Origin: Filifactoraceae bacterium
GTDB taxonomy: Bacteria; Bacillota; Clostridia; Peptostreptococcales; Filifactoraceae
Direction: 5' to 3'
NCBI GenBank assembly: GCA_041784625.1
Contig: JBHBDS010000036.1
Coordinates: forward strand, 1-43,117
Length of the DNA: 43,117 bases
The position numbers and the translations under genes are program-made. Position 1 is the first letter of the stretch, and each line of letters begins with the position of its first letter. Below, in pieces: positions 10,019 through 43,117 of the stretch. The notes below the pieces were generated by a model, which was not told the origin of the DNA, did no database searches, and worked only from the letters and a program-made list of their open reading frames with translations.

Positions 10019-10720
10019 ATGAAAAAGTCAAAACATATTGCAAAACTCGTATTTTTCACGCTGAGTTTTATCATCGGGATCGGACTTTCGATGCAGCTCA
10101 AAGTCAATGCGCCAAGACAATCCATTTCAGAGACGGCAGCGCACCTACAGGTAGAGCTGACCAATATCCGTGAGCAAAAAGATAAAGCGCAAAAAGAAAT
10201 CACGGAGCTTGAAGAGAAAATAAAACGCATCAAAGACTCTCAGCTCGAAAATGATGAAATCTATCAAAGTTTGGTATCGGAGCTAAATCTATACGAACTT
10301 CAAGCAGGAATGACCAAGGCGGTTGGGCCAGGCGTTATTGTGGATTTTCAACTGGAAGAAAATGATAAGTATGAAACTTTGATGGTGAACTTTGATCTGA
10401 TTCTGTCGGTTATCAACAAACTCAATGCAGCAGGAGCAGAGGGAATTTGTATCAACGAAGAACGCATCGTGTTTTCGACCGATCTTCGGTATGAGCAGGG
10501 AAATCTGCTCGTGAACAACAATCCCGTAGGAAGAACCATTCAAATTCGAGCGATCGGCGATGTAAATACGCTCGAGGCGGCGCTCAATATGAAGTACGGC
10601 ATTCTTTGGGAGATCAAAAACAACTTTGGGATTTTGGCAAAAGTAGAAAAATCAGAAAGAGTTGAACTCCCAAGATACACGCAAGAAATACAATTCAAAT
10701 TCGCAGCGATTCAAGAGTAG
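10019..10720 (+). CDS. DUF881-family division/cell-wall cluster protein (YlxW/YlxX-like)
   Basis: N-terminal TM segment, a coiled-coil, and a C-terminal VGPGVIV...DLILSVINKLNAAGAEGICINEERIV...IRAIGD pattern typical of DUF881. The position after divIB matches B. subtilis ylxW/ylxX. Confidence 0.7.
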   Translation: MKKSKHIAKLVFFTLSFIIGIGLSMQLKVNAPRQSISETAAHLQVELTNIREQKDKAQKEITELEEKIKRIKDSQLENDEIYQSLVSELNLYELQAGMTKAVGPGVIVDFQLEENDKYETLMVNFDLILSVINKLNAAGAEGICINEERIVFSTDLRYEQGNLLVNNNPVGRTIQIRAIGDVNTLEAALNMKYGILWEIKNNFGILAKVEKSERVELPRYTQEIQFKFAAIQE

Positions 10721-10973: not shown

Positions 10974-11696
10974 ATGGGCAAGCAAAATAAAACACGAAAT
11001 ATTCTTCTCCTGATTGGAGTTGTGGTAGGCTTTGTCGTAACGCTTCAATACAAATCGCTTCAGAACAGCACGATTTTTTTTAACACAGCAACACTTCGAG
11101 AGCTGGAGCTTCAGATTGAGATGGAAGCGAACGAGGTTCAGCGCCTCAACGAATACCAAGAGAGAAAACAAATGGAATTAGAAGAACTCAGTCAAGCAGA
11201 GAGCAAGGGGAATATTTTGGAGCTGCTTGAAAAACAAAGAATCCATGCGAAAGCGCTGCTGGGGCGAACGAGCTTTTATGGCTCGGGAGTGAAAGTAAAG
11301 GTGCAGGATTCGGATCAAGATATTTTGCCGACGCAAAATCCAAATGATTTTTTGGTGCATGACCAAGATATTTTGCGAATTGTTAATGACCTCAAAGTGG
11401 CAGGTGCAGAAGTGATTTCCATCAACGATCAGATTTACAAGAGAGACTCCGAGATCAAATGTTCTGGACCAACGATTACGATTAACGGAAAAACTTTTGG
11501 ACAGCCATTTATTATTCGAGCGATTGGTGATGCAGATACATTGGAAGCGGCGATCAAATCCAAAGATTCTTATTCGTATATGCTCACGTCCTTGTTTGGT
11601 ATTCGAATTGAGTCGGAAAAGGAAGAGTCGATCGTAATTTATAGTTCGAAGAGATATAGCAAGATTACATATATGGAGGAGGTAGTTGAATCATGA
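10974..11696 (+). CDS. DUF881-family protein, second paralog
   Basis: Same architecture as the previous gene (TM, coiled-coil, GSGVKVKV...DILRIVNDLKVAGAEVISINDQI...IRAIGD). The RBS is AGGAGAAG. Confidence 0.7.
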   Translation: MGKQNKTRNILLLIGVVVGFVVTLQYKSLQNSTIFFNTATLRELELQIEMEANEVQRLNEYQERKQMELEELSQAESKGNILELLEKQRIHAKALLGRTSFYGSGVKVKVQDSDQDILPTQNPNDFLVHDQDILRIVNDLKVAGAEVISINDQIYKRDSEIKCSGPTITINGKTFGQPFIIRAIGDADTLEAAIKSKDSYSYMLTSLFGIRIESEKEESIVIYSSKRYSKITYMEEVVES

Positions 11697-13255: not shown

Positions 13256-13261
13256 TTGGTG

Positions 13262-13292
13262 AAAAAAGAGAATCGTTGTATTCTCTTTTTTT
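13262..13292 (+). terminator. Rho-independent terminator after ftsZ
   Basis: Stem AAAGAGAAT / ATTCTCTTT with loop CGTTGT, followed by a T-run (13287-13292). Confidence 0.7.
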
Positions 13293-13487
13293 GAACCTTG
13301 CATTATAATAGAAGTGTAGGAAAGTTGTAACAACAAAACCAACATGTAGAAAAATAAATAAGAGGAAGGTGCTTTAATGTATTTATGCAAGAGAGATGAT
13401 AACATTGAGCAACAATAAAAATAAATAACTGAAACGATAGCAATAAGTAACTACAAATTTTGTCGGATTGAAATAAAGGAGAAAATC

Positions 13488-13946
13488 ATGAAATGTCAGT
13501 TTTGTGGCTCGAGTGAGTCGAAAGTCGTGGATTCCAGACAAGCAGAAGAGGGAAACAGTATCCGAAGACGTCGTGAGTGCGAGGAATGCGGCAAGCGCTT
13601 CACTACCTATGAGCGAATTGAGCAAACAAGTATCATGGTAATCAAAAAGGATAAGTCGAGGGAATATTTTGATCGAGAGAAGATACTCAAAGGAATTATC
13701 AAATCCTGCGAAAAAAGACATATTACGCTGGAGCAAATGGAGCAGATTGTTGATTCGATTGAACGGGATCTGCTCAACTCGATGACAAGGGAAGTCAGCA
13801 GCATTCGAATTGGCGAGATGGTGATGTCTGAGCTAAAAAATCTTGACGAGGTAAGCTATGTTCGATTTGCATCCGTGTATCGTGAGTTTAAGGATATCGA
13901 CAGCTTTATGGAGGAGCTAAAATCAATTATTTCTGAAAAGAAATAG
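13488..13946 (+). CDS. nrdR: Transcriptional repressor NrdR (zinc ribbon plus ATP-cone)
   Basis: The N-terminus [18 protein letters not shown]...[20 protein letters not shown] is the NrdR zinc-ribbon signature. An ATP-cone follows. Confidence 0.93.
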
Positions 13947-13968
13947 AAAAATTTCTGGGAAGGAGTCG

Positions 13969-15687
13969 ATGATGGTACAAGTAAATTCAAATATCGAAGC
14001 AATCAAGGAAAAACGTTCAGAAAAACTTTTTATGGATTTGATGAAGGATCGTAAAGGACTTTGTATCTCAAAAATTGCGCCGTTCAACGGGCAATACTTT
14101 GACTTATTATATATCGAAAATGATTCTGCTGCCCTGTTTAAATTTATGGATACCAATGACGAAACCTTTTCGATTTTGGCACAAGAAATTGTCGAGGTGA
14201 TCGAAGAGGAGTATGCATCCGCAAGAGAACTTATTTCCGATAAACTCGATGACTTGCAGATCAATTATTATTTTGTGATGCCATTTGTTTCGCTGGCGGA
14301 TTATGGACTGTCTTCGGGCGTTATTTTGGACAAAGATTCGATTAATAAACTCAACGATATTAATTTTTCAGATCTTTTGTCCGATATAAATGGTATGAGG
14401 AATCGTGTTTTGTATCGCTTGAGCAAAGAGTATTTTGTATTCCAAAAAGAATCTAGCATCGGAGAATTTTCCATCGAAATTGATTATGGCAAAAACAAAA
14501 TCAAAGCGAGTCTGATGGAAGAGGATCAGATGGAACATATCAACAACTTCTATTACGGAACGACGCTGCTAGAAGGTGCAACGGGCACGGGAAAAACAAG
14601 CGTGATGTTGGCAAAAATCATCAAAATTGCTCGAATTTATCCAAAAGAAAAATTCCTCTATATTACATTTGACAAACAACTCAGCATTGAAATCGGAAAT
14701 TTGCTGCGTTTCTACCATAGTGACATCAGCAATATCCGAGTAATCAACTTTCATCAATTTGTGCTACAGCTTGGGAAAAAATACAATTTGAAATTAAACA
14801 AGCAGAGCAAGCAGAGCTTTAACAAGGAATTTGAAAAAGTCTTTGAAAAAATTTCGAAAATATACAAAGGCAAGAGATACTATAAAGGGATATTTGTCGA
14901 TGAATCGGAAAATTTTAGCACAGAGGAAATTCATTTTTTGCGAGATATTTCCTATTTGACAAAGAATATCCTGTATCTTTCGTTTGACGAAGCAAAACAG
15001 ATGACGCCGATTCGTGCAAAAGAAAGAAATGCCAATCAATATCCATGGGATCAATACATTCGATTAATGCAAAATTATCGTGCTTCCAAGGAAATCGGAC
15101 GCTTCAATCTTGACTTTCAAAATGATCTAAACGCATTTTCAGCGCTGGAGATTGATCGTCTCGGAGACTATTTTCTTCCGTTTATTACGGAAAAAACGGA
15201 AATTGGGAATGCAAAAGTTTTAGAGTATGAGAACACCGATGCAATGATCCAGATGCTGTTAGATCAATTGAATGCTCTTGTACAAAAAGGATATAAGGAG
15301 TCGGATATTTGTATTATCTATCCTTTCAATGAAAAAGGAATCGGAAACAAGTCGGTTAACTCAAAACAAATTTTGAAAGATGCATTGTCGGAACATGGAT
15401 TCAAAACCCATTTTGCAGATGATGAAGCCAGTAATCTGAGTGCTAGCGACGGAATTTGTTTGAGTAATATTTACAATTCAACCAATTTGGAATGGAAAGT
15501 GGTGCTCGTTTGTCAGCTCGATTTGCTCTACCCAAATTACGAAACGATGACCGAAAAAGAAACGCAAAAGATGCTGAACATTATTTACACTGCCTCGGGG
15601 AGAGCGTGTGAAGAACTATATTTACTGATTAATCAAAACGAAAACAGACCAGGGATTATCGATTTATTAAGTCAAAAGCAGGTTTAG
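13969..15687 (+). CDS. SF1 (UvrD/Rep-like) helicase-type ATPase with uncharacterised ~190-aa N-terminal domain
   Basis: Motif I is GATGTGKTS and Ia is LYITFDKQL. Motif II is FVDESENF and IV is QNYRASKEI. Motif V is IYNSTNLEWKVVLV and VI is IYTASGRACEELYLL. The RBS is GGAAGGAG. It lies 22 nt after nrdR and 2 nt before the PilB-like gene. Confidence 0.65.
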   Translation: MMVQVNSNIEAIKEKRSEKLFMDLMKDRKGLCISKIAPFNGQYFDLLYIENDSAALFKFMDTNDETFSILAQEIVEVIEEEYASARELISDKLDDLQINYYFVMPFVSLADYGLSSGVILDKDSINKLNDINFSDLLSDINGMRNRVLYRLSKEYFVFQKESSIGEFSIEIDYGKNKIKASLMEEDQMEHINNFYYGTTLLEGATGTGKTSVMLAKIIKIARIYPKEKFLYITFDKQLSIEIGNLLRFYHSDISNIRVINFHQFVLQLGKKYNLKLNKQSKQSFNKEFEKVFEKISKIYKGKRYYKGIFVDESENFSTEEIHFLRDISYLTKNILYLSFDEAKQMTPIRAKERNANQYPWDQYIRLMQNYRASKEIGRFNLDFQNDLNAFSALEIDRLGDYFLPFITEKTEIGNAKVLEYENTDAMIQMLLDQLNALVQKGYKESDICIIYPFNEKGIGNKSVNSKQILKDALSEHGFKTHFADDEASNLSASDGICLSNIYNSTNLEWKVVLVCQLDLLYPNYETMTEKETQKMLNIIYTASGRACEELYLLINQNENRPGIIDLLSQKQV

Positions 15688-15689
15688 GT

Positions 15690-17057
15690 ATGACATACGG
15701 GGTTCACTTGATTTTTGGGGAAGATTTTGCATCACAAAATTTTTGTTTTGCGCTGAAGTATGTGGGCGCTTCTCTTGAAGTCGGAATTGCGGAGGGCATT
15801 TCCGATACTCAGGAGATTATCAAAGAGGCAAGAAAAATGGGGGTTCAAGAGGTTGTACTGAGACCTCTCTCTTTGAATGAAATCAAAAGGCTGATAAACA
15901 GCTATTATTCTATAGAGTTAAAAGAAAAAGAGATTTTCGAGCGCATTCGTCTCTACATCAGAGAAGAACGCTTTGAGGATCTTTTTTTGTACATTATGGA
16001 GAATGCATCGGATCTTTCGGCAAGTGATGTGCATATTTTTGCGGAAGAGCCGTATTTGATGATTCGGTTACGAATTCGTGGGAGGCTGGTAACTTTTTGT
16101 GTGCTGGATTCAAAATTGTTGCCGACACTTGGGAGAATCATTAAGGTTCGAGGGAATGTAGATATTTCCCGTAGTCTGCGTCCAATCGATGGCAGAATGG
16201 AATTGATGACGAATCAATCGCTGGACATCCGTTTTTCTATCGTCAACACGATACATGGTGAAAAGTATTCGCTTCGACTATTGGACAATGAAAACATTCC
16301 ACGTTCTGTGAATGAGCTTGGAATTTCGGAAGAAGAAATAAATCAGATTCGCAACATGCTTTTGAGAGAATCGGGAACGCTGCTTGTGACCGGACCAACA
16401 GGAAGTGGAAAATCGACAACCGTGCGATGTTTTTTGGATGAGATCAATGATGGAAACAGACATATTATTTCCATTGAAGATCCGATTGAGTACACCATGC
16501 CGGGCGTTACTCAAATTCAGGTGGATGATCGAACGCACAACGGATTCGAAGAAGGCGTGCGATCCATTTTGAGACAAGATCCAGACATTATTTTTATCGG
16601 AGAAATTCGAGATGAAGTCAGCGCAGAAGTTGCAATGAAAGCGAGTATTACGGGACATCTTGTGTTCAGCACATTGCACACCAAGACAGCGGAATTGGCG
16701 ATTGAACGACTTGAGAATCTCGGGCAAGAAAAGTCACTCATCTATGAAGCGATCTCCATGATAATAAATCAACGCCTTGTAGGCGAGAGTTGCGAGCATT
16801 GCAAGAGGAGGATTTCTTATATTGGGGAGGAAATCCTGCCGCTCAGTGTAAAAAACGGAGATATGATTTTTGAGTCCAAGGGCTGCGAACATTGTAATTA
16901 CAGTGGGATTCAACGTCGTGTTCCTGTGATGGCAATTGTTGAAATAAAAAACCGAAAACTCGAGCATTGTTTCGAGGATCAGTCAATCCAGCAAAAAATT
17001 ATTCGACGATTTCATGAGGGAAAAATATCATTGGAGGAGGCGAGACGTTTTCTATGA
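15690..17057 (+). CDS. Type IV pilus / type II secretion assembly ATPase (PilB/GspE family)
   Basis: Walker A is VTGPTGSGKSTT and Walker B/Asp box is ILRQDPDIIFIGEIRD. The His box is GHLVFSTLHT. A tetracysteine motif CEHC...CEHC is present. Confidence 0.88.
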   Translation: MTYGVHLIFGEDFASQNFCFALKYVGASLEVGIAEGISDTQEIIKEARKMGVQEVVLRPLSLNEIKRLINSYYSIELKEKEIFERIRLYIREERFEDLFLYIMENASDLSASDVHIFAEEPYLMIRLRIRGRLVTFCVLDSKLLPTLGRIIKVRGNVDISRSLRPIDGRMELMTNQSLDIRFSIVNTIHGEKYSLRLLDNENIPRSVNELGISEEEINQIRNMLLRESGTLLVTGPTGSGKSTTVRCFLDEINDGNRHIISIEDPIEYTMPGVTQIQVDDRTHNGFEEGVRSILRQDPDIIFIGEIRDEVSAEVAMKASITGHLVFSTLHTKTAELAIERLENLGQEKSLIYEAISMIINQRLVGESCEHCKRRISYIGEEILPLSVKNGDMIFESKGCEHCNYSGIQRRVPVMAIVEIKNRKLEHCFEDQSIQQKIIRRFHEGKISLEEARRFL

Positions 17058-18178
17058 GCAGAGAAAGAGTCATCGACTGGAAGAAAATACAGAATATTGA
17101 GTGGAAAAATTTCTATTCAGCTTCCTTTGTGCGGATAAAAAACAGAATACTTTATCGGAATATTTCTGCGAGTAAAAAAAGAAATTTCTATTATATGTTG
17201 GCATTTTATTTGGAAAGCAAAATGCCACTGGAAGAGGCGCTTCGGTTGCTGCTCGAGGACCTCAAGTTACCAGCGATATTGTCGATTAAAAAGCAGATTC
17301 AAAACGGAAGATGTCTTGCGGATGTGCTTAGAGAATATGATTTGGCAGATGAATTTATGTATTCTTGCCTGATGCTTGGCGAAAATACGGGCGACTATAT
17401 CAAGTCGTTCAAGCAGATTGTAGAATATCTGAATCAAAAAGAGGAAAATCAGAAATTTTTTGTACGAGTGAGCAGTTATCCGATATTGCTTTTTGTGTTG
17501 ATGTTTGCGTTGCTCGGATTCATTATTTTTGTCCTCACGCCGCAGATTTATCATACGATTGACAGCGTGGGTGCGCATATTCCATGGTCCTTACAGATTT
17601 TTTATCGCATGAACAGGTTTTTTATGCAAAATAGTGCAATGATTGGATTTCTGGCATTATTTATTTTCGGTGCGCTTTGGATATACAAAGACAAAGTGAG
17701 TCGGTTTGTGACAGTGCGTTTTCTAAAAATGAGTTGGATGCAGTCGATTTCTCGAACTTTTTTGGCAAGAAGTATTCTCTGGCAGATGGAAGTGCTCTAT
17801 GGTGCTGGACTTAGCATGACCGAGGTGATCGACATCGTAATAAGTAATACAAAATTCGCTGGGACACGCACATTGCTTGAGGAAATATTACTATCCATAC
17901 GCCAAGGTGTTGCACTTCACCATGCGATGGATCGCAGCGGATTATTTCCATCTGCGGTCATATCTTATGTTCGTCTGGGAGAAGAAACTGATAGTTTACC
18001 AGAAAATCTGCATTCTGCTTTGATGTTCTTAAACATTAAAACAAATGATATTGCAGAAAATTTGAAACGGATCATTCAGCCGACACTCGTCATCATTGCA
18101 GGAGGAATGATTTCGCTCATTTTGGCGATGGTTCTGCCAATCATCAACTCGATTACATACCTAGGAGGGCTATCGTGA
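17054..18178 (+). CDS. Type IV pilus / T2SS inner-membrane platform protein (PilC/GspF family)
   Basis: Two T2SSF-like repeats are separated by TM segments. The length (374 aa) and position after the ATPase fit the family. Its ATGA overlaps the upstream stop. Confidence 0.8.
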   Translation: MSRERVIDWKKIQNIEWKNFYSASFVRIKNRILYRNISASKKRNFYYMLAFYLESKMPLEEALRLLLEDLKLPAILSIKKQIQNGRCLADVLREYDLADEFMYSCLMLGENTGDYIKSFKQIVEYLNQKEENQKFFVRVSSYPILLFVLMFALLGFIIFVLTPQIYHTIDSVGAHIPWSLQIFYRMNRFFMQNSAMIGFLALFIFGALWIYKDKVSRFVTVRFLKMSWMQSISRTFLARSILWQMEVLYGAGLSMTEVIDIVISNTKFAGTRTLLEEILLSIRQGVALHHAMDRSGLFPSAVISYVRLGEETDSLPENLHSALMFLNIKTNDIAENLKRIIQPTLVIIAGGMISLILAMVLPIINSITYLGGLS

Positions 18179-18609
18179 AAATTTTTCAATACAATGCAAT
18201 CACTCAAGAAATTTCCTCGTGCAAACCTCAGGGAAAAATTGATTTGAGCAAAGGGAATCAAGTTATTGTCATGAAAATAAATTCGAATACGAAAACCCAA
18301 AATGTTGTGGAAATTACTTTCGGAAAATCGGAAATAGATTCATTAATACTAACAAAAAAAGAAGCGCAAAAACTAATTCAATACTGTGGATACAACAATC
18401 TTCAGATGCAAAAAGTGTTCGTATATACACCAAAATTATTTTTGCTGGGGCAAATGGAGGAGAATCGAAAAAATGTTTTTCTGAAACTTGGAGAATCCTA
18501 TTTTGTCGGAGAAAATAATCAAGTTCGAGAATTATCTCAAGTGGACACGTTATTAAAGTATGGAAAATATTTTGAGCCTGAAAATATTTTGGTATGGGAG
18601 GAGCGATGA
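18175..18609 (+). CDS. Hypothetical soluble protein in the pilus-like operon (PilM slot, no recognisable motif)
   Basis: GTG start with an AGGAGGG RBS, and GTGA overlap with the platform gene. No TM segment or nucleotide-binding motif is visible. It is coding by context only. Confidence 0.45.
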   Translation: MKIFQYNAITQEISSCKPQGKIDLSKGNQVIVMKINSNTKTQNVVEITFGKSEIDSLILTKKEAQKLIQYCGYNNLQMQKVFVYTPKLFLLGQMEENRKNVFLKLGESYFVGENNQVRELSQVDTLLKYGKYFEPENILVWEER

Positions 18610-19055
18610 AAGCAAGCAAGTACAGTCTAAATCATGAACTTCTGCAATTTGCGAATCGAGAACGTAAAGTGGAACTGCTTCTTTTGCTCGTTCTGGTTTT
18701 GTTTATCGGATTTAATTTATTCTTGTTTTTGCAAGAGGAAAAATATTCTCAATTGCACACTCTGCACGCTGAACAGGAGTATGATGCGCAAGAAGCAGAG
18801 TATCACTCATTTTTGCGTTCGACGGCATTTTTGAACGCATCTTTGCTGAGCGATCAAATGAAAAAACTGGAGATGCTTCATGCAAATCATATTCGACTAG
18901 AACAAAACCGAATTTTGTTGCATTACGAAGAATCATCACTGGAGTCAATCGAGCCAGATATTGTACTTCTTCGAGAAAATTTTGGGGAAGTAAAAATTCT
19001 TCAGCAGGAACAACAACTGGGCGAAAGTCGTATCATCATCGAGGTGAGCCTATGA
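18606..19055 (+). CDS. PilN-like bitopic pilus assembly protein (architecture only)
   Basis: Short cytoplasmic N-terminus, a single TM segment (VELLLLLVLVLFIGFNLFLFL), then a coiled-coil and a small C-terminal domain. ATG 18606 follows GGAGGAG and overlaps the upstream stop (ATGA). Confidence 0.45.
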   Translation: MKASKYSLNHELLQFANRERKVELLLLLVLVLFIGFNLFLFLQEEKYSQLHTLHAEQEYDAQEAEYHSFLRSTAFLNASLLSDQMKKLEMLHANHIRLEQNRILLHYEESSLESIEPDIVLLRENFGEVKILQQEQQLGESRIIIEVSL

Positions 19056-19486
19056 AGAATATCATCAAACTGAGCATTCTTTTTATGTCGCTGCTCTTAG
19101 TGTTTTTCACAATCCCGTCAATCAATAAAATTCAGCGATACAAAAATTCACTGCCGAAGCTGGCGATTAATGCAAAAGGGGAGATGCCCAAAATTGACAG
19201 CTACATTCTCAGTCAGCAAATTGAAAATCTGATTGAGAAATCGGATGTGCAAAAGAAAAAATATTCTTCGCAATTTCAGGATAGTGAGATGCTCGATATC
19301 TGTGTCTATGAGATGGAGCTGAAAGGAAAATGGGACAATCTTTCGAAACTATTTGATGAAATCATCCGAATTGAAGGAGCAAAACTGCGTCTTGTCGAGT
19401 GGACAAAAGACGATAATAGCGCTCACAATGTCTCGGGCTCCGATGGAATATTGCGCTTGCAGATTCTTTTTGCTGGAGGGAAATAG
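19052..19486 (+). CDS. PilO-like bitopic pilus assembly protein (architecture only)
   Basis: N-terminal TM segment (LSILFMSLLLVFFTI). The C-terminal pattern ICVYEMELKGKWDNLSKLFDEIIRIEGAKLRLVEW...GILRLQILF resembles the PilO ferredoxin-like domain. ATGA overlaps the upstream gene. Confidence 0.5.
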   Translation: MKNIIKLSILFMSLLLVFFTIPSINKIQRYKNSLPKLAINAKGEMPKIDSYILSQQIENLIEKSDVQKKKYSSQFQDSEMLDICVYEMELKGKWDNLSKLFDEIIRIEGAKLRLVEWTKDDNSAHNVSGSDGILRLQILFAGGK

Positions 19487-19487
19487 G

Positions 19488-19832
19488 ATGAAACAAGTTC
19501 AGAGTGGATTTGCTTTTGTGGATGTCATTATTTCGATTGCTATCGTGTCAATGATGGCACTCCTAATTGCAATTTCGAGCAATTCATATCATAAAAATCT
19601 GGTTACTCTTCGCTCTCTCGACCAAGTCGAAACCATCGTACAAAATGAGTTAATGCTGCTCTCAGAGACCAAACACAACGAGAATAAACACTACGATCAG
19701 ATTAATGTAACTTATCAAGTGCTGGAGGAAATTCGAGTTGGAGAAGCAAATATTCTTCGATTGAGAATGCTTGTGGAGGATTTGGAAAATGACACAAAAA
19801 AAGAATGCGAAGTTCTCTGTCAAGTCTCGTAA
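19488..19832 (+). CDS. Prepilin-type N-terminal cleavage/methylation protein (minor pseudopilin, Asp at +5)
   Basis: MKQVQSG|FAFVDVIISIAIVSMMALLIAI is a class III signal with Gly-1/Phe+1 followed by a hydrophobic helix. ATG 19488 lies 7 nt after GGAGGG. The ORF-track entry 19353..19832 is an upstream extension in the same frame. Confidence 0.7.
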   Translation: MKQVQSGFAFVDVIISIAIVSMMALLIAISSNSYHKNLVTLRSLDQVETIVQNELMLLSETKHNENKHYDQINVTYQVLEEIRVGEANILRLRMLVEDLENDTKKECEVLCQVS

Positions 19833-20802
19833 TGGATTTAGCACGATTCAGACCATCTTGATATTATCCGTGCTGATCACATTGATTGGTTCGACAGCGA
19901 GAATTTTTTCTATTAACATCAAGAATGCCAAGGCGGTGCAGAACAAATCGGAAATTAGTATTGCGATGCATAATGTGAATGTAATCGTCGATGCGGCAGT
20001 AGAGAGCGAAATCCACAGAATATTCGACCAAGCTAAGGCAAAAGCGGAAAAGGAGAGCGCGCAGAAAATAAAATCGGAAAATTCTTTGGGAGGAACTTCT
20101 TCGAACGAGCAAGAAAAATCTGCCGCAAGTGAAAATAGTGCATCGACAATTGTCAATCACAACACGGTGGACAACTTCAGCGATAATAAAGATGCAGCAA
20201 CTACCGAAAAAAGTACTGAGTCTAGCAACGAAGAATTAGAAGATAAAACCAGCGATTCGAAAAAAGATATTGCAAAAATTGCGAATGAAGATTCTAACAA
20301 CCAAGCGAAATCTGAAGTAATTGGTGAACCAGAAAAAGAGAAAAAGCGGAAGGCATTTATTGATCATATTATCGATGAGCTGAGGGTTAATCATTCCGCA
20401 GCAATCAAAAAAATCGACTACAACATTCAATCGATAATTGCAGAACAGGAAAATTTATTACGTGATCTTGGTATCAAAGTAGCGGTAAAACGATCCACTG
20501 GTACTGCTAAAATTCAGTTTGCACAACTCAAGAGACCCGATGGGAAATTACCAAGCATGGACGATGTATACCATTTGAAATTTTCCGATCTAACAGACAT
20601 TGCCCTTATTGAAAAAAGCAAAGTGCGTAGCTCTCGTGATCTGATGCTGCAAGTACCAATTCAAATCATTATCGAAGACAAAACTTTTTACATCACAAGA
20701 AATTACTATTTGGATTTTGATGAGGCGATATTAAAAGATGAAAATTTTGATTCCAAAATCCATCTGATTGTCGGAGAGACCAATTATGCGAGACTCAAAT
20801 AA
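19789..20802 (+). CDS. Large prepilin-like protein (PilK/GspK/ComGG-like, Gln at +5) with acidic low-complexity insert
   Basis: MTQKKNAKFSVKSRNG|FSTIQTILILSVLITLIG has a Gly-Phe junction and a hydrophobic helix but no Glu at +5. ATG 19789 follows GGAGGA and overlaps the previous gene by 44 nt. The start is uncertain (track: 19771). Confidence 0.55.
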   Translation: MTQKKNAKFSVKSRNGFSTIQTILILSVLITLIGSTARIFSINIKNAKAVQNKSEISIAMHNVNVIVDAAVESEIHRIFDQAKAKAEKESAQKIKSENSLGGTSSNEQEKSAASENSASTIVNHNTVDNFSDNKDAATTEKSTESSNEELEDKTSDSKKDIAKIANEDSNNQAKSEVIGEPEKEKKRKAFIDHIIDELRVNHSAAIKKIDYNIQSIIAEQENLLRDLGIKVAVKRSTGTAKIQFAQLKRPDGKLPSMDDVYHLKFSDLTDIALIEKSKVRSSRDLMLQVPIQIIIEDKTFYITRNYYLDFDEAILKDENFDSKIHLIVGETNYARLK

Positions 20803-21331
20803 GAAACGAATATCTGCACAAAAAGGATTTACGCTGATCGAGCTCATCCTCGTTATCACGATCTTGTTATCTTTTGCATTTTTTGCGCTGCTAAAGGTGA
20901 GTCACCGGCCGATTGTTTTAGAGAACACGGCGAATGAACTGGTATCCGCATTGCGATATGCCAGAGCTTGCTATGAGGCGGGCGACAGTAATGTCAAATT
21001 TTCGATAGAGCTTGTCGATGGGCAAAATCATATTCGGATTCGAGAACGAGTCACAGAACATTTGAACGCCGAAATCACGGTGGACATTCCGATCGATCCG
21101 TCCATACGAATCATGAGCAAGAATATTCACGCTGAAACAACAAAGGATGAGAATGAAAAATCGCTTGATGGGTATTCGCAGCTTTTCACCAATAGCATTG
21201 AAATCACCTACTCAGGAAAAACAACCACTGGAAAAACTTTCGTTCTAATGAGCGACAAAGAAAAATATTACTACAAAATCACCATCGTTCCAACGACATC
21301 GAGAGTGCATTTATATAAACTCGAAAAATAA
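20786..21331 (+). CDS. Prepilin-type protein, GspH/FimT/ComGD-like minor pseudopilin
   Basis: MRDSNKKRISAQKG|FTLIELILVITILL is a canonical prepilin motif with Glu+5. It is followed by LENTANELVSALRYARACY, which resembles GspH/FimT. ATG 20786 is preferred (track: 20768). Confidence 0.75.
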   Translation: MRDSNKKRISAQKGFTLIELILVITILLSFAFFALLKVSHRPIVLENTANELVSALRYARACYEAGDSNVKFSIELVDGQNHIRIRERVTEHLNAEITVDIPIDPSIRIMSKNIHAETTKDENEKSLDGYSQLFTNSIEITYSGKTTTGKTFVLMSDKEKYYYKITIVPTTSRVHLYKLEK

Positions 21332-21457
21332 TTTTTTGCTCTTTACGCAATCGATTATTTATGCTATTATTACTAAGTATGAAATTTTCCTGTCGCTAGG
21401 ATTCTCGACACTCCGACGAAAGTCTTGGGGCCAGGGCATTGAAAATTAGGAGGAACT

Positions 21458-21721
21458 ATGACAAAGCAACAAAAAGAGCAAATCATCAAAGATTATGCTG
21501 TACACGAAGGAGACACTGGGTCTGCTGAAGTGCAAATCGCACTACTAACTTTTAGAATCAACGAACTGAACGAGCATCTTAAAACGCACAAAAAAGACCA
21601 CCACTCAAGAAGAGGTCTATTTAAGATGGTTGGAACAAGAAGAAATCTTCAAAGATATTTGAAAGAAAAAGATCTTGATAGATACCATGCACTTATTCAA
21701 AGACTTGGACTTAGAAAGTAA
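21458..21721 (+). CDS. rpsO: 30S ribosomal protein S15
   Basis: An 87-aa protein carrying [37 protein letters not shown], the S15 signature. The RBS is AGGAGG. Confidence 0.95.
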
Positions 21722-21731
21722 GACAATCAAG

Positions 21732-21755
21732 AGAGCGGAGCGTTCCGCTCTTTTT
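21732..21755 (+). terminator. rpsO terminator/attenuator hairpin ahead of pnp
   Basis: An 8-bp stem AGAGCGGA/TCCGCTCT with loop GCGT and then TTTT. It sits in the 55-nt rpsO-pnp spacer. Confidence 0.7.
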
Positions 21756-30992: not shown

Positions 30993-32840
30993 ATGTATAA
31001 AAAAGTATTAGTATTATTTTTGATAGTTTTGCTCGTAATGCCAGATTACTTTGGCAATGCGCATGCTGATTATGATTTTGAGTATCTTATGAGCATTTCA
31101 AGCGAACAAGAAGGAAATTCATTTGTTCTTCAAACGCCAACTTCGATTGACAGAGATGAACAAGGGAATTACTATGTAGCAGATCTTGCAAACGATCGAA
31201 TTGTAATACTTAATTCGCAGATGCAAAAAATAGGGCAGATTTCGGAGCTCGATATGCCGATAACTGTATATATTGATAACCAACAAAATATTATTATTTG
31301 TGAGTTGGGCAGTCACAAAGTCATAAAATACAATCAGGAACTGCAAAGAGTAACTGAGTGGGGTGGAGCAGGAACAGAAGAAGGGAAATTCAATATTCCT
31401 CGCTCAGTTGTTCAGGACAGTCAAGGAAACTATTTTGTCAGTGATGAATTAAATCATAGGATTCAAAAATTTGATATCAATGGTTCACATATTTCAACTT
31501 ACGGAAATTATGGAACACAAAATGGACAGTTTAGAGTTCAACAAGGACTATCGATTGATTCTAACGATAGACTTTATGTTGCAGACACATACAACAATCG
31601 AATTCAAATTTTTGAGACATACCCCGAGTGGAACTTTGTTTCAGCTTTTGGACAATATGGTGTGTATCAACCTTTTAACTACTTTAGCTTTCAACCAAAT
31701 ATTTTTAACCATCCACGAAATGTTTATGTAAACAAAGAAACTGGGCGTATTCTGGTTACGGACAGCTTGAATGGACGGGTAATGCTATATAGTAGCTATG
31801 AAGAAGGGATTTCGTTTAGGCAATCTCAAAACGGATTTTTGACAATGAATCTGCCAACAGATGCGATAGTCGATCGTTTTGATAAAATAGTTGCGCTTGA
31901 TTCTTACAATCGAATCATAAAATATAGCACTTCGCTGAGCAATTCTAATTTGTACGCTGAGTACGGGCTGGGGAGCTCAAATGTAAATAGATTTTGTGGG
32001 ACGCAAAGTGTAGCAATTGACCCTATCACGAAAGATGTTTATGTTACGGATTCTTTCAATCACCGAATAAAAAAATACAACGATAATTGTACGTTCATTA
32101 CATCATATGGAGGAATTGGTGGTACGTGGGGGATAGGGACTTTACTGAATTACTTTGCTTTTCCGAAACAAATTACTGTTGATGATAATCAAAAACTCTA
32201 TGTTGCGGACTTTGGAAATAAAAGAATTGTTAGTAAAGCAAATAATAGCAACCAGTTTCGGTTGGAAGTTGGTTCGCTAAACCTTGAAATGCCTTGGGGT
32301 GTTGCAGTGGACAGTAGTGGAAAAATATTTGTTTCAGATTGGGGAGATCATAAAATAAAAGTTTTTGAAAATGGAAGGATGATTAATAGTTGGGGAGGAA
32401 GCGGGAGCCAAATTGGACAACTAAGCCGACCGAGTGAGCTGAGGATTGGTTATTACAATGACAATGAAGTTCTTGCAGTAGCCGATACGCTAAACAATAG
32501 AGTGCAAATTTTTGACTTGTCGGGAGAAGTTATTTCTGTAATTGGAAGTCCTACGAACGATCCATTGCTAAATTACAAAGATGAATATTTGGAGGGAAAT
32601 TTACTACTGCCGTATAGCATGGATTTTGACTCTGAAAACAATCTTATTGTAATGGATACCTCGCATAAATGCATCAGAGTGTATGATTTCAACGGAGAGT
32701 TAATCAAAACATATGGTGAAATGTCAAATTCTGATGGAAACTTTTTTTCTCCAATTGGATGTGACTATGGCGCAGATGGTACTTTGTGGGTGACAGACAG
32801 TGTGCTGCAAAGAGTGAGCAAATTTAATATCATTCCATAG
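30993..32840 (+). CDS. Secreted NHL-repeat protein (about 12 repeats, two predicted six-bladed propellers)
   Basis: The signal peptide is MYKKVLVLFLIVLLVMPDYFGNAHA. There are twelve D-x-x-N-x-R-I-x-x-F/Y-like repeats (DLANDRIVILN, DELNHRIQKFD, DTYNNRIQIFE, DSFNHRIKKYN, DTLNNRVQIFD ...). Confidence 0.8.
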   Translation: MYKKVLVLFLIVLLVMPDYFGNAHADYDFEYLMSISSEQEGNSFVLQTPTSIDRDEQGNYYVADLANDRIVILNSQMQKIGQISELDMPITVYIDNQQNIIICELGSHKVIKYNQELQRVTEWGGAGTEEGKFNIPRSVVQDSQGNYFVSDELNHRIQKFDINGSHISTYGNYGTQNGQFRVQQGLSIDSNDRLYVADTYNNRIQIFETYPEWNFVSAFGQYGVYQPFNYFSFQPNIFNHPRNVYVNKETGRILVTDSLNGRVMLYSSYEEGISFRQSQNGFLTMNLPTDAIVDRFDKIVALDSYNRIIKYSTSLSNSNLYAEYGLGSSNVNRFCGTQSVAIDPITKDVYVTDSFNHRIKKYNDNCTFITSYGGIGGTWGIGTLLNYFAFPKQITVDDNQKLYVADFGNKRIVSKANNSNQFRLEVGSLNLEMPWGVAVDSSGKIFVSDWGDHKIKVFENGRMINSWGGSGSQIGQLSRPSELRIGYYNDNEVLAVADTLNNRVQIFDLSGEVISVIGSPTNDPLLNYKDEYLEGNLLLPYSMDFDSENNLIVMDTSHKCIRVYDFNGELIKTYGEMSNSDGNFFSPIGCDYGADGTLWVTDSVLQRVSKFNIIP

Positions 32841-33035: not shown

Positions 33036-33049
33036 TTGAACAATTGCTA

Positions 33050-33078
33050 TTGACATTCGACATGGTATTGGGTACAAT
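33050..33078 (+). promoter_or_regulatory. Near-consensus sigma-A promoter (TTGACA-17-TACAAT) for the first DUF5684 gene
   Basis: TTGACA lies at 33050-33055 and TACAAT at 33073-33078. The ORF-track TTG start at 33044 lies just upstream of the -35 box and is therefore unlikely. Confidence 0.7.
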
Positions 33079-33106
33079 TTGGGAAATATTATCAGAGGAG
33101 GAGTCT

Positions 33107-33532
33107 ATGCACACGGAGGAAGAGCTGCTTAATCTCGTGGTTCATGTTGCGATAACTGCATCGCTATTTGCAAATTATCTCGTGTTTTTTGGGGTAGCGA
33201 TGTGGAAAATTTTTCGCAAAGCAGGGTATCAAGGATGGGAATTCTTCGTTCCTTTCTATGGGCAGTATTGCTTGACAAAAATGATTTTTGGAAAAGGCTG
33301 GATGTGGGTTTTTCTTTTTATTCCAGGAATAAATACTTTTTTGTTGATGATTTGGTTCTATCATCTTGCGCGAGTATTTGGTAAGGAAGTTGGATTTTCG
33401 ATCGCAACTGCATTTTTTTGGCCTGTAATGATTTTGATCATCGCATTTGGAGAGTCGGAGTTTATCACAAACAAAAACCATTTTGATTTTGTGGTGGAAT
33501 CGGGAAGATTTATTGAGGAATTTCGCAGGTGA
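33107..33532 (+). CDS. DUF5684-family membrane protein (paralog 1)
   Basis: ATG 33107 follows AGGAGGAG. The core MWKIFRKAGYQGWEFFVPFYGQYCLTKMIFGKGWMW...YHLARVFGKEVGFSIATAFFWPVMILIIAFG matches the WK(I/V)F.KAG..GW..(I/V)P.Y pattern of DUF5684. Confidence 0.65.
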   Translation: MHTEEELLNLVVHVAITASLFANYLVFFGVAMWKIFRKAGYQGWEFFVPFYGQYCLTKMIFGKGWMWVFLFIPGINTFLLMIWFYHLARVFGKEVGFSIATAFFWPVMILIIAFGESEFITNKNHFDFVVESGRFIEEFRR

Positions 33533-33544
33533 TTTTGTTTTATC

Positions 33545-33573
33545 TTGACGTTGTACTACTGGTTTGGTACAAT
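33545..33573 (+). promoter_or_regulatory. Near-consensus sigma-A promoter (TTGACG-17-TACAAT, TGg extended -10) for the second DUF5684 gene
   Basis: TTGACG lies at 33545-33550 and TGGTACAAT ends at 33573. The ORF-track TTG start at 33545 is the -35 hexamer itself. Confidence 0.7.
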
Positions 33574-33619
33574 TGTTGTGTGGAAAAATTTTAGTGAATT
33601 TTACAAGAGGGAGAAAATT

Positions 33620-34003
33620 ATGGATTACGAAGCATCAAGATTAATTGGGCAAGTGCTTTCAGGCACGGTTGGCACAATGTATCTCATTTTTATTTTGTTT
33701 GTTATCGCAGCACAGTGGAAAGTGTTTGTCAAAGCTGGGCTAGCTGGTTGGAAATGTCTTGTACCGTTTTATGGTCAATACTGTCTTTCTAAAATTGTTT
33801 TTGGGAAAGGTTGGTATTTCCTGGCGATGTTTGTTCCGCTACTCAATATAATTTTCGGGTTGGCACTTTTATACAATTTGGCAAAAGTATTTGGAAAAGG
33901 TTTTGGATTCTTCCTTGGGCTTTTGTTCTTGAACCCGATCTTCATGCTGATTCTTGGATTTAGTGACGCAGAGTATCAAGGACCAATCGACGTAGTGCTA
34001 TAG
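33620..34003 (+). CDS. DUF5684-family membrane protein (paralog 2)
   Basis: ATG 33620 follows GAGGGAG. The core QWKVFVKAGLAGWKCLVPFYGQYCLSKIVFGKGWYF...YNLAKVFGKGFGFFLGLLFLNPIFMLILGF is clearly paralogous to the upstream gene. Confidence 0.65.
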   Translation: MDYEASRLIGQVLSGTVGTMYLIFILFVIAAQWKVFVKAGLAGWKCLVPFYGQYCLSKIVFGKGWYFLAMFVPLLNIIFGLALLYNLAKVFGKGFGFFLGLLFLNPIFMLILGFSDAEYQGPIDVVL

Positions 34004-41556: not shown

Positions 41557-43117
41557 TTACATTATTTTTTTGACCAATCGATGGAGCATCGCAGCAAATT
41601 CTGCTCGAGTTGCTCTGCCGCTTGGGTCGAGAAGATGATTTGATTTACCGCCGATGATTCCGTTGCCAACTGCCCACTGAACCGCTTCCAGATTTTGCGC
41701 TGAGATTTTGTTTTTGTCACGGAATTGGGACAAATCACTTGCTACATTGCTATATCCTTTGAGCGTCGCATATCGATACAATATGCTGGCGATTTGTTCT
41801 CGAGACAGTGTTGCATAGAGATCGATTTTTTCACTTGAGCTGCCAAGAATCTTATTATCCACCATCCATTCGACGGCATCGATGTACCATAGCTCAGTTT
41901 CCTTTTTTAGGATAAGAATATTGCTTTGTGAAGCTGGAAGATTGTTTAGCTGTAGCAATGCGCCCGCAACGGTAGCATAAGTCGTCGATCCTTGTGGGTC
42001 AAAGGAATTTTCTTTTGTTGGAGCGATCAAACTATTTTCATATGCAAAATACACATCGTAGAAATACCAACGACTTGCATTCACATCGACCAGATCGATG
42101 TTAGAAAGCGGGGTTTTCTCGTCGCGAATCATTTCGCTGTTTGTTGGTCTGACAGAACTTGGTGAGTATTGATTGCTAGAGCCCGACAAGCCAGAATTGT
42201 TTGAGCCAGAGTTATTGTTTCCACTGTTCGAACCCGAATTGCCTCCGCCGCCCTGTGATGGATTGTCATTTGGGTTCGATGAATTGGATTCTGGAAGCGC
42301 CACTGCGACTGGAGACAGCGAGTCCAGGGTGAAAAACACTTTGCCATCTTCTACGAGTAGAGGAATGGTTTCGAGCTCTCCGTCTTTACAATGGAGAACC
42401 GAAACATTTTGTCCGTTATACTTCGGGTCAATTGGAATCGCTACCGTAATTTTTCCTGTGAAATTTCCTTTTCGGACATGGATTCCGTGAAGTGATAATA
42501 ACAATTCTTTTCCCATGGAAGAATGAATTGCGTCGCATGCTTTGCAAGTTCCTTTTGGGTGGATAGAGCCTTCAATTGCTTCGATTTCTGCATCTGGAGT
42601 AATTTGTCCTTGGATCGAAATATTGGTGACGGAATCGATTAAACTTCGCTGGATATGACCGCTATCTGCAACAAAAGAACTTTCTTTGTTCAATGACATC
42701 TCATTTCCTGCAAGGTCTTTGAATTTTGAAACTTCGACCAAATAAAATCGACCAGGCACAAGATTGGAATAGGCTAGATTTAATATTTTGTTATCGTCTT
42801 CCCATCTTGCGGATTGGAGAGAGAGATCAATATCGCCATCTTTATGTAGAAAACGAACCGAGCCAGCATTTTCTCCAGCTGAAATATCGATTGGCTCGCT
42901 AAAGTCAATTGTTGCATCACCACTTAGTGGGACATTTTCTCCAGCGGGCTCTCTTACGCTCGCTGTTGGCGCAGTAACATCAGCAGCAGGGTTATGTGCT
43001 CGATCGCCAATCCATGAATGAGTGGCTATATCGATCCCCATTGGGAGTTTCGTTTCGACTGTTTTTTGGATTGAAACTACTATTGCATTTTCGAAATCCG
43101 CTGCACCGATATTATCA
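41557..43117 (-). CDS. Cell-wall-anchored surface protein with three C-terminal SLH domains (5' end outside the window)
   Basis: The frame stays open from 43041 to the window edge (DNIGAADFENAIVVSIQKTVETKLPMGID...). The N-terminal part looks Ig-like. A Gly/Ser/Asn-rich linker is present (NPSQGGGGNSGSNSGNNNSGSNNSGLSGSS). There are three SLH-like repeats (LVDVNASRWYFYDV..., ...WYIDAVEWMVDNKIL...SREQIASILYRYA, FRDKNKIS...AVQWAVGNGIIGG...RATRAEFAAMLHRLV). Confidence 0.75.
   Translation of the reverse strand, partial: DNIGAADFENAIVVSIQKTVETKLPMGIDIATHSWIGDRAHNPAADVTAPTASVREPAGENVPLSGDATIDFSEPIDISAGENAGSVRFLHKDGDIDLSLQSARWEDDNKILNLAYSNLVPGRFYLVEVSKFKDLAGNEMSLNKESSFVADSGHIQRSLIDSVTNISIQGQITPDAEIEAIEGSIHPKGTCKACDAIHSSMGKELLLSLHGIHVRKGNFTGKITVAIPIDPKYNGQNVSVLHCKDGELETIPLLVEDGKVFFTLDSLSPVAVALPESNSSNPNDNPSQGGGGNSGSNSGNNNSGSNNSGLSGSSNQYSPSSVRPTNSEMIRDEKTPLSNIDLVDVNASRWYFYDVYFAYENSLIAPTKENSFDPQGSTTYATVAGALLQLNNLPASQSNILILKKETELWYIDAVEWMVDNKILGSSSEKIDLYATLSREQIASILYRYATLKGYSNVASDLSQFRDKNKISAQNLEAVQWAVGNGIIGGKSNHLLDPSGRATRAEFAAMLHRLVKKIM

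Follow-up and report, generated by a model that had tools for sequence, protein, structure and literature searches.

A helicase-like ATPase gene beside a reduced type IV pilus module in Filifactoraceae: neighbours in a probable core-genome transcription unit

The type IV pilus (T4P) clusters described in Clostridia, such as the pilB2-pilC2-pilin-pilM-N-O arrangement of Clostridioides difficile and Romboutsia or the loci of Clostridium perfringens, encode on one strand PilB and PilC, and after them small bitopic and pilin-like proteins. In the ComG operon of the competence pseudopilus (Bacillus, Streptococcus), overlapping genes likewise encode an ATPase together with a platform protein and a number of small pilin-like ones. 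Here we analyse a locus related to both, found in 43,117 nucleotides of Filifactoraceae bacterium (GenBank assembly GCA_041784625.1, contig JBHBDS010000036.1, positions 1 to 43,117), a stretch that we refer to as the window. At 13969-21331 it carries nine plus-strand open reading frames (ORFs): a gene for a helicase-like ATPase, which we call hel, followed by pilB, pilC, a small orphan gene (o144), two genes for bitopic membrane proteins in the PilN and PilO positions (N-like and O-like), and three genes for minor-pilin-like proteins (pp1, pp2 and pp3). An earlier note, made from the sequence of this stretch, had proposed that hel is a dedicated motor of helicase superfamily 1 (SF1) for a DNA-handling pseudopilus. 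Our analysis leads us to consider it probable that hel is instead a pilus-independent, lineage-specific nucleic-acid ATPase that happens to be transcribed together with a reduced module for pilus assembly and minor pilins.

Compared with the clostridial T4P clusters, the one in the window comes without PilM, without a pilin gene right after pilC, and without a prepilin peptidase or PilT. It has in addition the orphan o144 and, at its head, nrdR and the NERD/UvrD-like gene hel. Its proteins in the PilN and PilO positions, unlike those of clostridial T4P, show no detectable similarity to the Pfam families PilN and PilO. With regard to ComG, pp1 and pp3 give weak matches to the ComGF and ComGD models. 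However, the matches of PilB and PilC to ComGA (213 vs 300) and ComGB (117 vs 240) stay under their cut-offs, there is no ComGC-type major pilin, and ComG operons are without the two bitopic proteins.

Another protein to be compared is ComFA, a DEAD-box protein of superfamily 2 that is encoded together with ComFC in a separate operon and is required for DNA uptake. The earlier note had seen in hel a logic analogous to that of ComFA. This analogy was not borne out, since hel is an SF1 protein with a NERD-like domain and unrelated to ComFA, which is not found among its NCBIfam matches at E up to 1, and there is no adjacent comFC-like gene.

The hel family and its neighbourhoods

A scan of species-representative genomes found 87 relatives of hel, of which 80 were kept, all of them from Peptostreptococcales. 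The counts given here on the neighbourhood of hel refer to these 80 loci, and pilus linkage was judged within 10 kb. Synteny was established by tblastn of the window proteins, together with recA, rny, bacA, xer and purB, against the loci, and a neighbour-joining (NJ) tree of hel was built.

These comparisons show that hel is not pilus-specific. It is present as one locus per genome in 80 species, of which 64 lack pilus genes within 10 kb of hel, the gene mostly following recA-rny there. The genes pilB and pilC adjoin it in the remaining 16 loci, all Filifactoraceae-type. The gene is also found intact at the same site, without a local pilus cluster, in three related genomes (loci L015, L016 and L076), and the conservation of its motifs is equal in pilus-linked and unlinked clades. 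A gene that is kept where the cluster is absent, and that has no pilus neighbours in 64 of 80 loci, lends no support to the proposal of a dedicated motor.

The NJ tree of hel tracks taxonomy and is divided into three clades. The first one is Filifactoraceae-type (the window, Filifactor alocis, F. villosus and Proteocatella), with hel placed after nrdR and a pilus cluster in 20 of 22 members, L016 and L076 having none. The second one corresponds to Acetoanaerobium, where hel follows recA-rny and two of three members have the pilus cluster, with pilA between hel and pilB, the third being L015. The last one comprises Peptostreptococcaceae proper plus Tepidibacter, about 55 species including the genera Romboutsia, Clostridioides/Metaclostridioides, Terrisporobacter, Paraclostridium, Intestinibacter and Peptostreptococcus. 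Its typical order is recA-rny, hel, (bacA), a xer-like gene and purB, and it shows a pilus cluster within 10 kb of hel in 0 of 55 cases.

The limits of the family are sharp. A profile search against 1.84 billion representatives returned about 13 clusters at 480 bits or more and then nothing above 200 bits, and in a word-indexed search the scores fell from 621 to 66 bits.

Where the pilus cluster is present, its adjacency to hel goes beyond the one genome in which it was first noticed. It recurs in 16 of 16 related genomes carrying the cluster, down to about 33% hel identity. Among the 15 genomes with the nrdR context, of which the window is one, the first possible start codon of pilB lies at -40 to +87 nt relative to the hel stop, and the nrdR of the window is 63-88% identical to the nrdR found directly 5' of hel in 15 related loci. 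Promoter and terminator scans of L054 and L018, at rny-hel and hel-pilA, gave no useful information, with scores not above those of shuffled sequences. Literature searches on a helicase-pilus link, on Filifactor pili and on the C. difficile hel orthologue (by guessed locus tags) gave nothing relevant.

In Proteocatella and one Filifactoraceae metagenome-assembled genome (MAG), a response regulator and a histidine kinase are encoded between nrdR and hel, with equally tight packing (L014:7994-9984; such genes are also found in L004, L005, L007 and L016). This suggests that the hel(-pilus) unit is under regulated expression in these lineages.

The hel protein and its defence-type relatives

Sequence and structural model agree that hel is a member of the UvrD/Rep/PcrA superfamily. 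It matches the Pfam UvrD-helicase (N-terminal domain) family with 35.5 bits (cut-off 23; 1.2e-8), and remains below threshold for UvrD_C_2 (15.7 vs 27.4) and DEAD (19.4 vs 26). No NCBIfam equivalog was matched, which rules out PcrA, RecD2, HelD, AddA and ComFA as identities for hel and places it, as the earlier note had left conditional, outside the well-characterised housekeeping families.

An AlphaFold2 model built from 27 homologues (pLDDT 90, pTM 0.91) predicts a compact SF1 core at residues ~190-572, with the helicase domain of SLFN11/14 and UvrD/PcrA/Rep as best Foldseek matches (E ~1e-15, TM ~0.5). With these last proteins hel shares the RecA-like 1A/2A core fold and an alignable Walker A, Walker B and motif IV NYR. 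It differs from them in the size of the core (~390 aa vs ~650-720 aa), in its 10-13% identity, in a Pfam UvrD_C score under the cut-off, in the degenerate motifs III and V, and in the extra NERD-like N-terminal domain. Within the hel family, Walker A (GxxGxGKT), Walker B (DExE) and motif IV (NYR) are conserved, and other residues stand in place of both motif III (GDxxQ) and the motif V signature KGLEF.

The N-terminal domain (residues 1-185), modelled alone, gave a pLDDT of 88 and an alpha-beta-beta-beta-alpha-beta topology. Its top Foldseek matches are all PD-(D/E)xK nucleases, namely NucS/EndoMS, Bax1, the R2 endonuclease domain, the AddA nuclease, Can2 and Hjc, and all of them are weak (E at least 0.026). 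There was no match to Pfam NERD. In the family, D45 is invariant and K58 nearly so, and the acidic residue of the (D/E)xK signature is replaced by Leu or Phe. From these motifs and models, hel would probably bind and hydrolyse ATP, and its canonical unwinding and nuclease activities appear doubtful.

Beyond the family itself, hel has relatives among defence-type proteins. It matches the PADLOC model 'NERD+UvrD' at 8e-17 over residues 68-554, so that only the C-terminal part of its N-domain is covered, and models of GajB, from the Gabija system, at 1e-11. The profile search ties the family to NERD+UvrD defence-type proteins at 1e-30 to 1e-53. The tier of 120-200 bits in this search is made up of proteins of about 640 aa, for example from Ureibacillus and Psychrilyobacter, which keep canonical UvrD motifs and match PADLOC 'NERD+UvrD' (C3a187) at 1e-43. 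As predicted for hel, the PADLOC C3a187 proteins and GajB combine an N-terminal nuclease-related fold with a compact UvrD-like SF1 core. However, the defence-type proteins show DExQ, GDxxQ and KGLDF where the hel family has DE[SA]EN, a degenerate motif III and SNIYNxxNLE.

The neighbourhoods are also different. The ~640-aa relatives belong to a cassette of a GHKL-ATPase-like protein (510 aa), the NERD/UvrD protein, a FapA-like protein of 366 aa, DrmA and DrmB, sometimes with a second NERD-helicase (L086:1184-2716, L112:9327-10427, L145:9933-13364 and L096:9832-11739 are examples), which is reminiscent of a DISARM-like defence context in which the partner genes are unusual. In 80 metagenome loci of these relatives (L084-L163), none was near pilB, pilC, nrdR, recA or rny, whereas hel is single-copy and syntenic. 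Given the canonical motifs of the relatives and their DISARM-like context, the hel family appears to have diverged from defence-type NERD+UvrD helicases and to have become fixed in the chromosome.

The pilus module and its transcription unit

The coordinates and junctions of the nine genes, read again from the sequence, agree with the overlap-coupled block described in the earlier note, and the intergenic distances among them range from -44 to +2 nt (Table 1). Regarding its start, hel had been placed at the head of the unit. The short gap to nrdR and the lack of a terminator between the two genes were confirmed. A consensus terminator scan of the plus strand at 13256-21730 found no credible site, with one weak intragenic match at 18814, and the first convincing terminator lies 3' of rpsO. 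Since the nrdR stop is 22 nt away from the hel start and no terminator precedes the 3' end of rpsO, the transcription unit would most likely start at nrdR, giving ten genes rather than nine, and it may read on into rpsO.

Table 1. Features of the window, with the junction between each gene of the unit and the gene before it
Feature	Coordinates	Strand	Description	Junction with preceding gene
DUF881 gene	10019-10720		in dcw cluster, just 5' of ftsZ-nrdR-hel-pilB	
DUF881 gene	10974-11696		in dcw cluster, just 5' of ftsZ-nrdR-hel-pilB	
nrdR	13488..13946	+	typical NrdR translation; probable first gene of unit	
hel	13969..15687	+	572 aa; NERD-like (predicted PD-(D/E)xK-fold) N-domain ~1-185, compact divergent UvrD-like SF1 ATPase core	nrdR TAG ends 13946, hel ATG 13969, 22 nt apart, ribosome-binding site GGAAGGAG between
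pilB	15690..17057	+	PilB/GspE-family assembly ATPase; 455 aa, short N-terminal domain; Pfam T2SSE	TAG 15687, ATG 15690 (2 nt)
pilC	17054..18178	+	PilC/GspF-family platform protein; Pfam T2SSF	4-nt ATGA overlap
o144	18175..18609	+	small soluble protein, orphan	4-nt GTGA overlap
N-like	18606..19055	+	bitopic membrane protein in PilN position, one N-terminal transmembrane segment	4-nt ATGA overlap
O-like	19052..19486	+	bitopic membrane protein in PilO position, hydrophobic N-terminus, syntenic orthologues	4-nt ATGA overlap
pp1	19488..19832	+	small minor-pilin-like protein, signal SGFAFVD (Asp at +5)	TAG 19486, ATG 19488
pp2	19789..20802	+	large pilin-like protein, NGFSTIQ (Gln at +5, no Glu), 337-343 aa	44-nt overlap, given pp2 start at ATG 19789 (GGAGG ahead of ATG)
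pp3	20786..21331	+	canonical prepilin KGFTLIE, resembles GspH/ComGD minor pilins	17-nt overlap, given pp3 start at ATG 20786
Terminator	21737-21751	+	first convincing site, 3' of rpsO	
NHL-repeat protein gene	30993-32840		615 aa, ScyF-like, GC low (0.365)	
DUF5684 genes	33044-34003		two genes in tandem	
Surface protein gene	41557-43041	-	SLH + Big_5	

The gene content was for the most part as previously described, with a helicase-type ATPase, PilB and PilC. PilB matches the T2SSE family at residues 98-437 with 301 bits (cut-off 24.9; 1.2e-89), and its translation shows a Walker A motif (GPTGSGKST) and the CxxC motifs CEHC...CEHC. It stays under the NCBIfam equivalog cut-offs for PilB (TIGR02538, 285 vs 675), GspE (TIGR02533, 307 vs 630) and ComGA (NF041000). 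Its clade (44-71% identity, full length) was found only in Filifactoraceae-type genomes, and the closest full-length relatives outside it (~35% identity, ~460 aa) include the Romboutsia pilB2-type protein. PilC matches T2SSF in two stretches (95.9 bits vs 25.2; 2.2e-27) and is predicted to have three hydrophobic segments. The ComGB, GspF and HofC models give about 117 bits, each under its cut-off. Judged by their sequences, both proteins belong generically to the type IV filament superfamily and not to a Com system.

The labels PilN and PilO, which the earlier note had given to the next membrane proteins, rest on position and bitopic topology. Both are 144-149 aa long. The N-like protein has syntenic orthologues in every related cluster, no Pfam match, and no significant hhalign match to its Romboutsia counterpart (E 0.073). 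The O-like protein gives a weak collinear match to Romboutsia by hhalign (102 columns, E 0.016), and one of ten orthologues, not the window protein itself, matches Pfam PilO at 1.4e-3. Thus, topology and position fit PilN and PilO, and the window proteins match no family.

PilM, an actin-like protein of the cytoplasm, binds the N-terminus of PilN. The place expected for it is occupied here by o144, the gene with the lowest GC content at third codon positions (GC3) of the block, 0.30. The o144 protein has no predicted transmembrane segment and no significant family match in Pfam or NCBIfam, with the Pfam scans extended to all orthologues. Orthologues in the same position are found only in the window clade and Proteocatella, the Filifactor and Acetoanaerobium clusters having none, and hhalign of o144 against a Romboutsia PilM gave a probability of 0.1% (E 0.43).

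A class III signal consists of a short basic leader with Gly at -1, followed by Glu at +5 and a hydrophobic helix. Of the three proteins that had been described as prepilin-like, pp3 carries such a signal, the sole canonical prepilin motif of the window in a six-frame scan, matches N_methyl (24.5 bits vs 21.2) and TIGR02532 (26.3 vs 16.3), and has weak ComGD and GspH matches. The other two have the helix and no canonical motif, and therefore count only as pilin-like. pp1 has weak matches to ComGF, ComGC and ComGE (0.003-0.03), and the signals of its orthologues are RGFGFVD, KGFGFID and KGFLILD. pp2 has an N-terminal hydrophobic helix, a conserved position and no family match in Pfam or NCBIfam. 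It is 25-31% identical in tblastn to orthologues of 204-256 aa and, by analogy, may be a GspK/PilX-type pilin-like protein without the Glu at +5. It is about 100 aa longer than these orthologues, the extra length being a low-complexity insert at about residues 95-195 in which Ser, Glu, Lys and Asn abound.

A complete T4P locus would include a major pilin and a prepilin peptidase, and often PilT, and no such set is present within the 43-kb window. In agreement with the earlier note, the six-frame prepilin-motif scan and the family scans of the other ORFs detected no pilA, pilD, pilM or pilT. The family scans found no ComEA or ComEC gene either, and tblastn of PilB returned no paralogue in the window. 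In Clostridia, the genes for pilin, peptidase and PilT are commonly found away from the assembly genes (PMC6958937). Moreover, the orthologous clusters of Acetoanaerobium pronyense (L018) and a related MAG (L013), which come after recA-rny-hel and not after nrdR-hel, have a typical pilA gene placed between hel and pilB, as well as four genes for pilin-like proteins. These major-pilin genes (L018:4034-4444 and L013:2940-3392) have signals such as KKRLGFTLIEF and match N_methyl. The presence of pilA in these clusters indicates that the block is a real pilus system, of the ordinary Gram-positive type IV kind, and that the major pilin of the window organism, as well as its prepilin peptidase, must be encoded elsewhere in the genome.

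The setting of the block is the core genome, as had been noted before. Upstream lies a dcw cluster with a penicillin-binding protein (PBP), Mur ligases, MraY, FtsW, MurG, FtsQ, two DUF881 genes and ftsZ; downstream are rpsO, pnp, lipid-metabolism genes and potABCD. At 0.30-0.48, the GC3 of the block does not leave the range of the adjacent genes (0.28-0.56), and the block is thus no compositional island. A recent horizontal acquisition of the block was considered and rejected, as its GC3 is within that range and its synteny is conserved. Clostridial pili can be controlled by c-di-GMP riboswitches. In an Rfam scan of the whole window, which included these riboswitches and covered the regions upstream of rpsO and of the pilus genes, no RNA family of any kind reached its gathering score, and no tRNA was found in the window.

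In Romboutsia, the pilB2-type locus (L081) has the order tig-clpP-clpX-lon-engB-(P-loop NTPase)-DUF881-pilB-pilC-pilin-PilM-two small genes, without hel, meaning that Peptostreptococcaceae have pilus clusters and hel at separate sites. The DUF881 gene of this locus (L081:9325-10008) overlaps the 5' end of the pilB2-type gene. Taken with the two DUF881 genes of the window and the pilT-ftsA-ftsZ operon of C. perfringens, a precedent for clostridial pilus genes among division and housekeeping genes (PMC6958937), these positions hint that pilus genes and division genes may be linked repeatedly across Clostridia.

Readings of the hel-pilus adjacency

Putting these elements together, we regard the locus as a core-genome transcription unit of a Filifactoraceae-type bacterium, most likely read from nrdR, in which the primary task of hel would be to act on nucleic acids independently of the pilus, for instance by remodelling DNA or RNA, or in repair or surveillance. 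The eight genes 3' of hel would form a reduced Gram-positive T4P module, with PilB as extension ATPase, PilC as platform, a small accessory protein of the cytoplasm, two bitopic alignment-type proteins, and a minor-pilin set (pp1-pp3) that would prime filament assembly. In the Filifactoraceae-type family, hel and the pilus genes would share a promoter and be translationally coupled because the pilus cluster sits directly 3' of an old, stable gene.

Several observations weigh against this account. The spacing between hel and pilB is tight (a 4-nt overlap in L001, L002 and L008), and the adjacency persists over the deep divergence of hel mentioned above. It is found in two upstream contexts, nrdR and rny, as would also be expected if the pairing were selected. 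The cluster has no PilM, so that a cytoplasmic partner could be missing from it, and Peptostreptococcaceae with an unlinked hel carry pilus clusters elsewhere (L081), which makes an action of hel in trans possible.

The same observations can be taken to mean that hel is a true pilus accessory, that is, a cytoplasmic nucleic-acid motor or nuclease-like adaptor handling DNA that passes through PilB/PilC with a ComFA-like logic, and serving distant pilus clusters in trans in the species where it is unlinked. Applied to Filifactoraceae, a domesticated NERD/UvrD-type ATPase would have been recruited to a PilM-less T4P, coupling PilB/PilC to the uptake, export or inspection of DNA, which we consider a doubtful scenario. 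Translational coupling of hel and pilB in 15 genomes, an adjacency kept in two chromosomal contexts from ~33 to 100% hel identity, and the position of recA two genes 5' of hel in the rny-context genomes speak in its favour. However, blocks moved together in a single rearrangement are expected to stay adjacent whether they interact or not. In 64 of 80 species hel is without a linked pilus gene, it is intact where the local cluster is absent, and its motifs are conserved to the same degree in linked and unlinked clades. Its motif III is degenerate, it has neither a ComFA signature nor a comFC, and the window contains no ComEA or ComEC gene. Besides, the Romboutsia pilB2-type cluster does without hel, and helicases go unmentioned in two broad surveys of type IV filament loci. 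We therefore find the accessory role unlikely.

The pilus module might also be a decaying remnant from which no filament is built. Such decay would account for the lack of pilA, pilD, pilM and pilT in the window, for the long low-complexity insert of pp2, and for the loss of the cluster from the hel-adjacent site in three related genomes. Nevertheless, the eight ORFs are intact, their orthologues in syntenic position in many genomes (25-59% identical) point to purifying selection, and PilB matches the full T2SSE model with its Walker A and CxxC motifs in place. With pilin, peptidase and PilT genes commonly away from the assembly genes in Clostridia (PMC6958937), and with pilA included in the Acetoanaerobium version of the cluster, a remnant seems improbable.

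Finally, the reading of hel and the pilus as a defence or surveillance module, raised in the earlier note, with hel as an anti-phage effector of NERD/UvrD type that might sense DNA entering through the pilus, takes support from the PADLOC and GajB matches and from nearest outside relatives in DISARM-like cassettes with DrmA and DrmB, yet it is very improbable, as defence genes are typically patchy in distribution and hel is single-copy, vertically inherited and syntenic across the order, has an incomplete (D/E)xK nuclease signature, and lies in a window with no compositional island and no GajA, DrmA/B/C or methylase, while pilB/pilC occur in 0 of 80 defence-type loci.

The helicase-like family is uncharacterised and probably no part of the pilus. 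If a functional coupling were true, type IV filaments would gain a nucleic-acid motor among their known components, the first SF1 motor genetically wired to one of them, and there would be a new way to approach DNA transactions in Peptostreptococcales of the mouth and gut, Filifactor alocis among them. What the analysis defines is a sharply bounded family of NERD-like/SF1 ATPases, which is a single-copy core gene of Peptostreptococcales such as Clostridioides, Romboutsia and Peptostreptococcus. It also describes an operon for pilus assembly and minor pilins, reduced and without PilM, which lies beside the division cluster, is probably co-transcribed with housekeeping genes, and represents a further member of the known Gram-positive type IV pilus kind.

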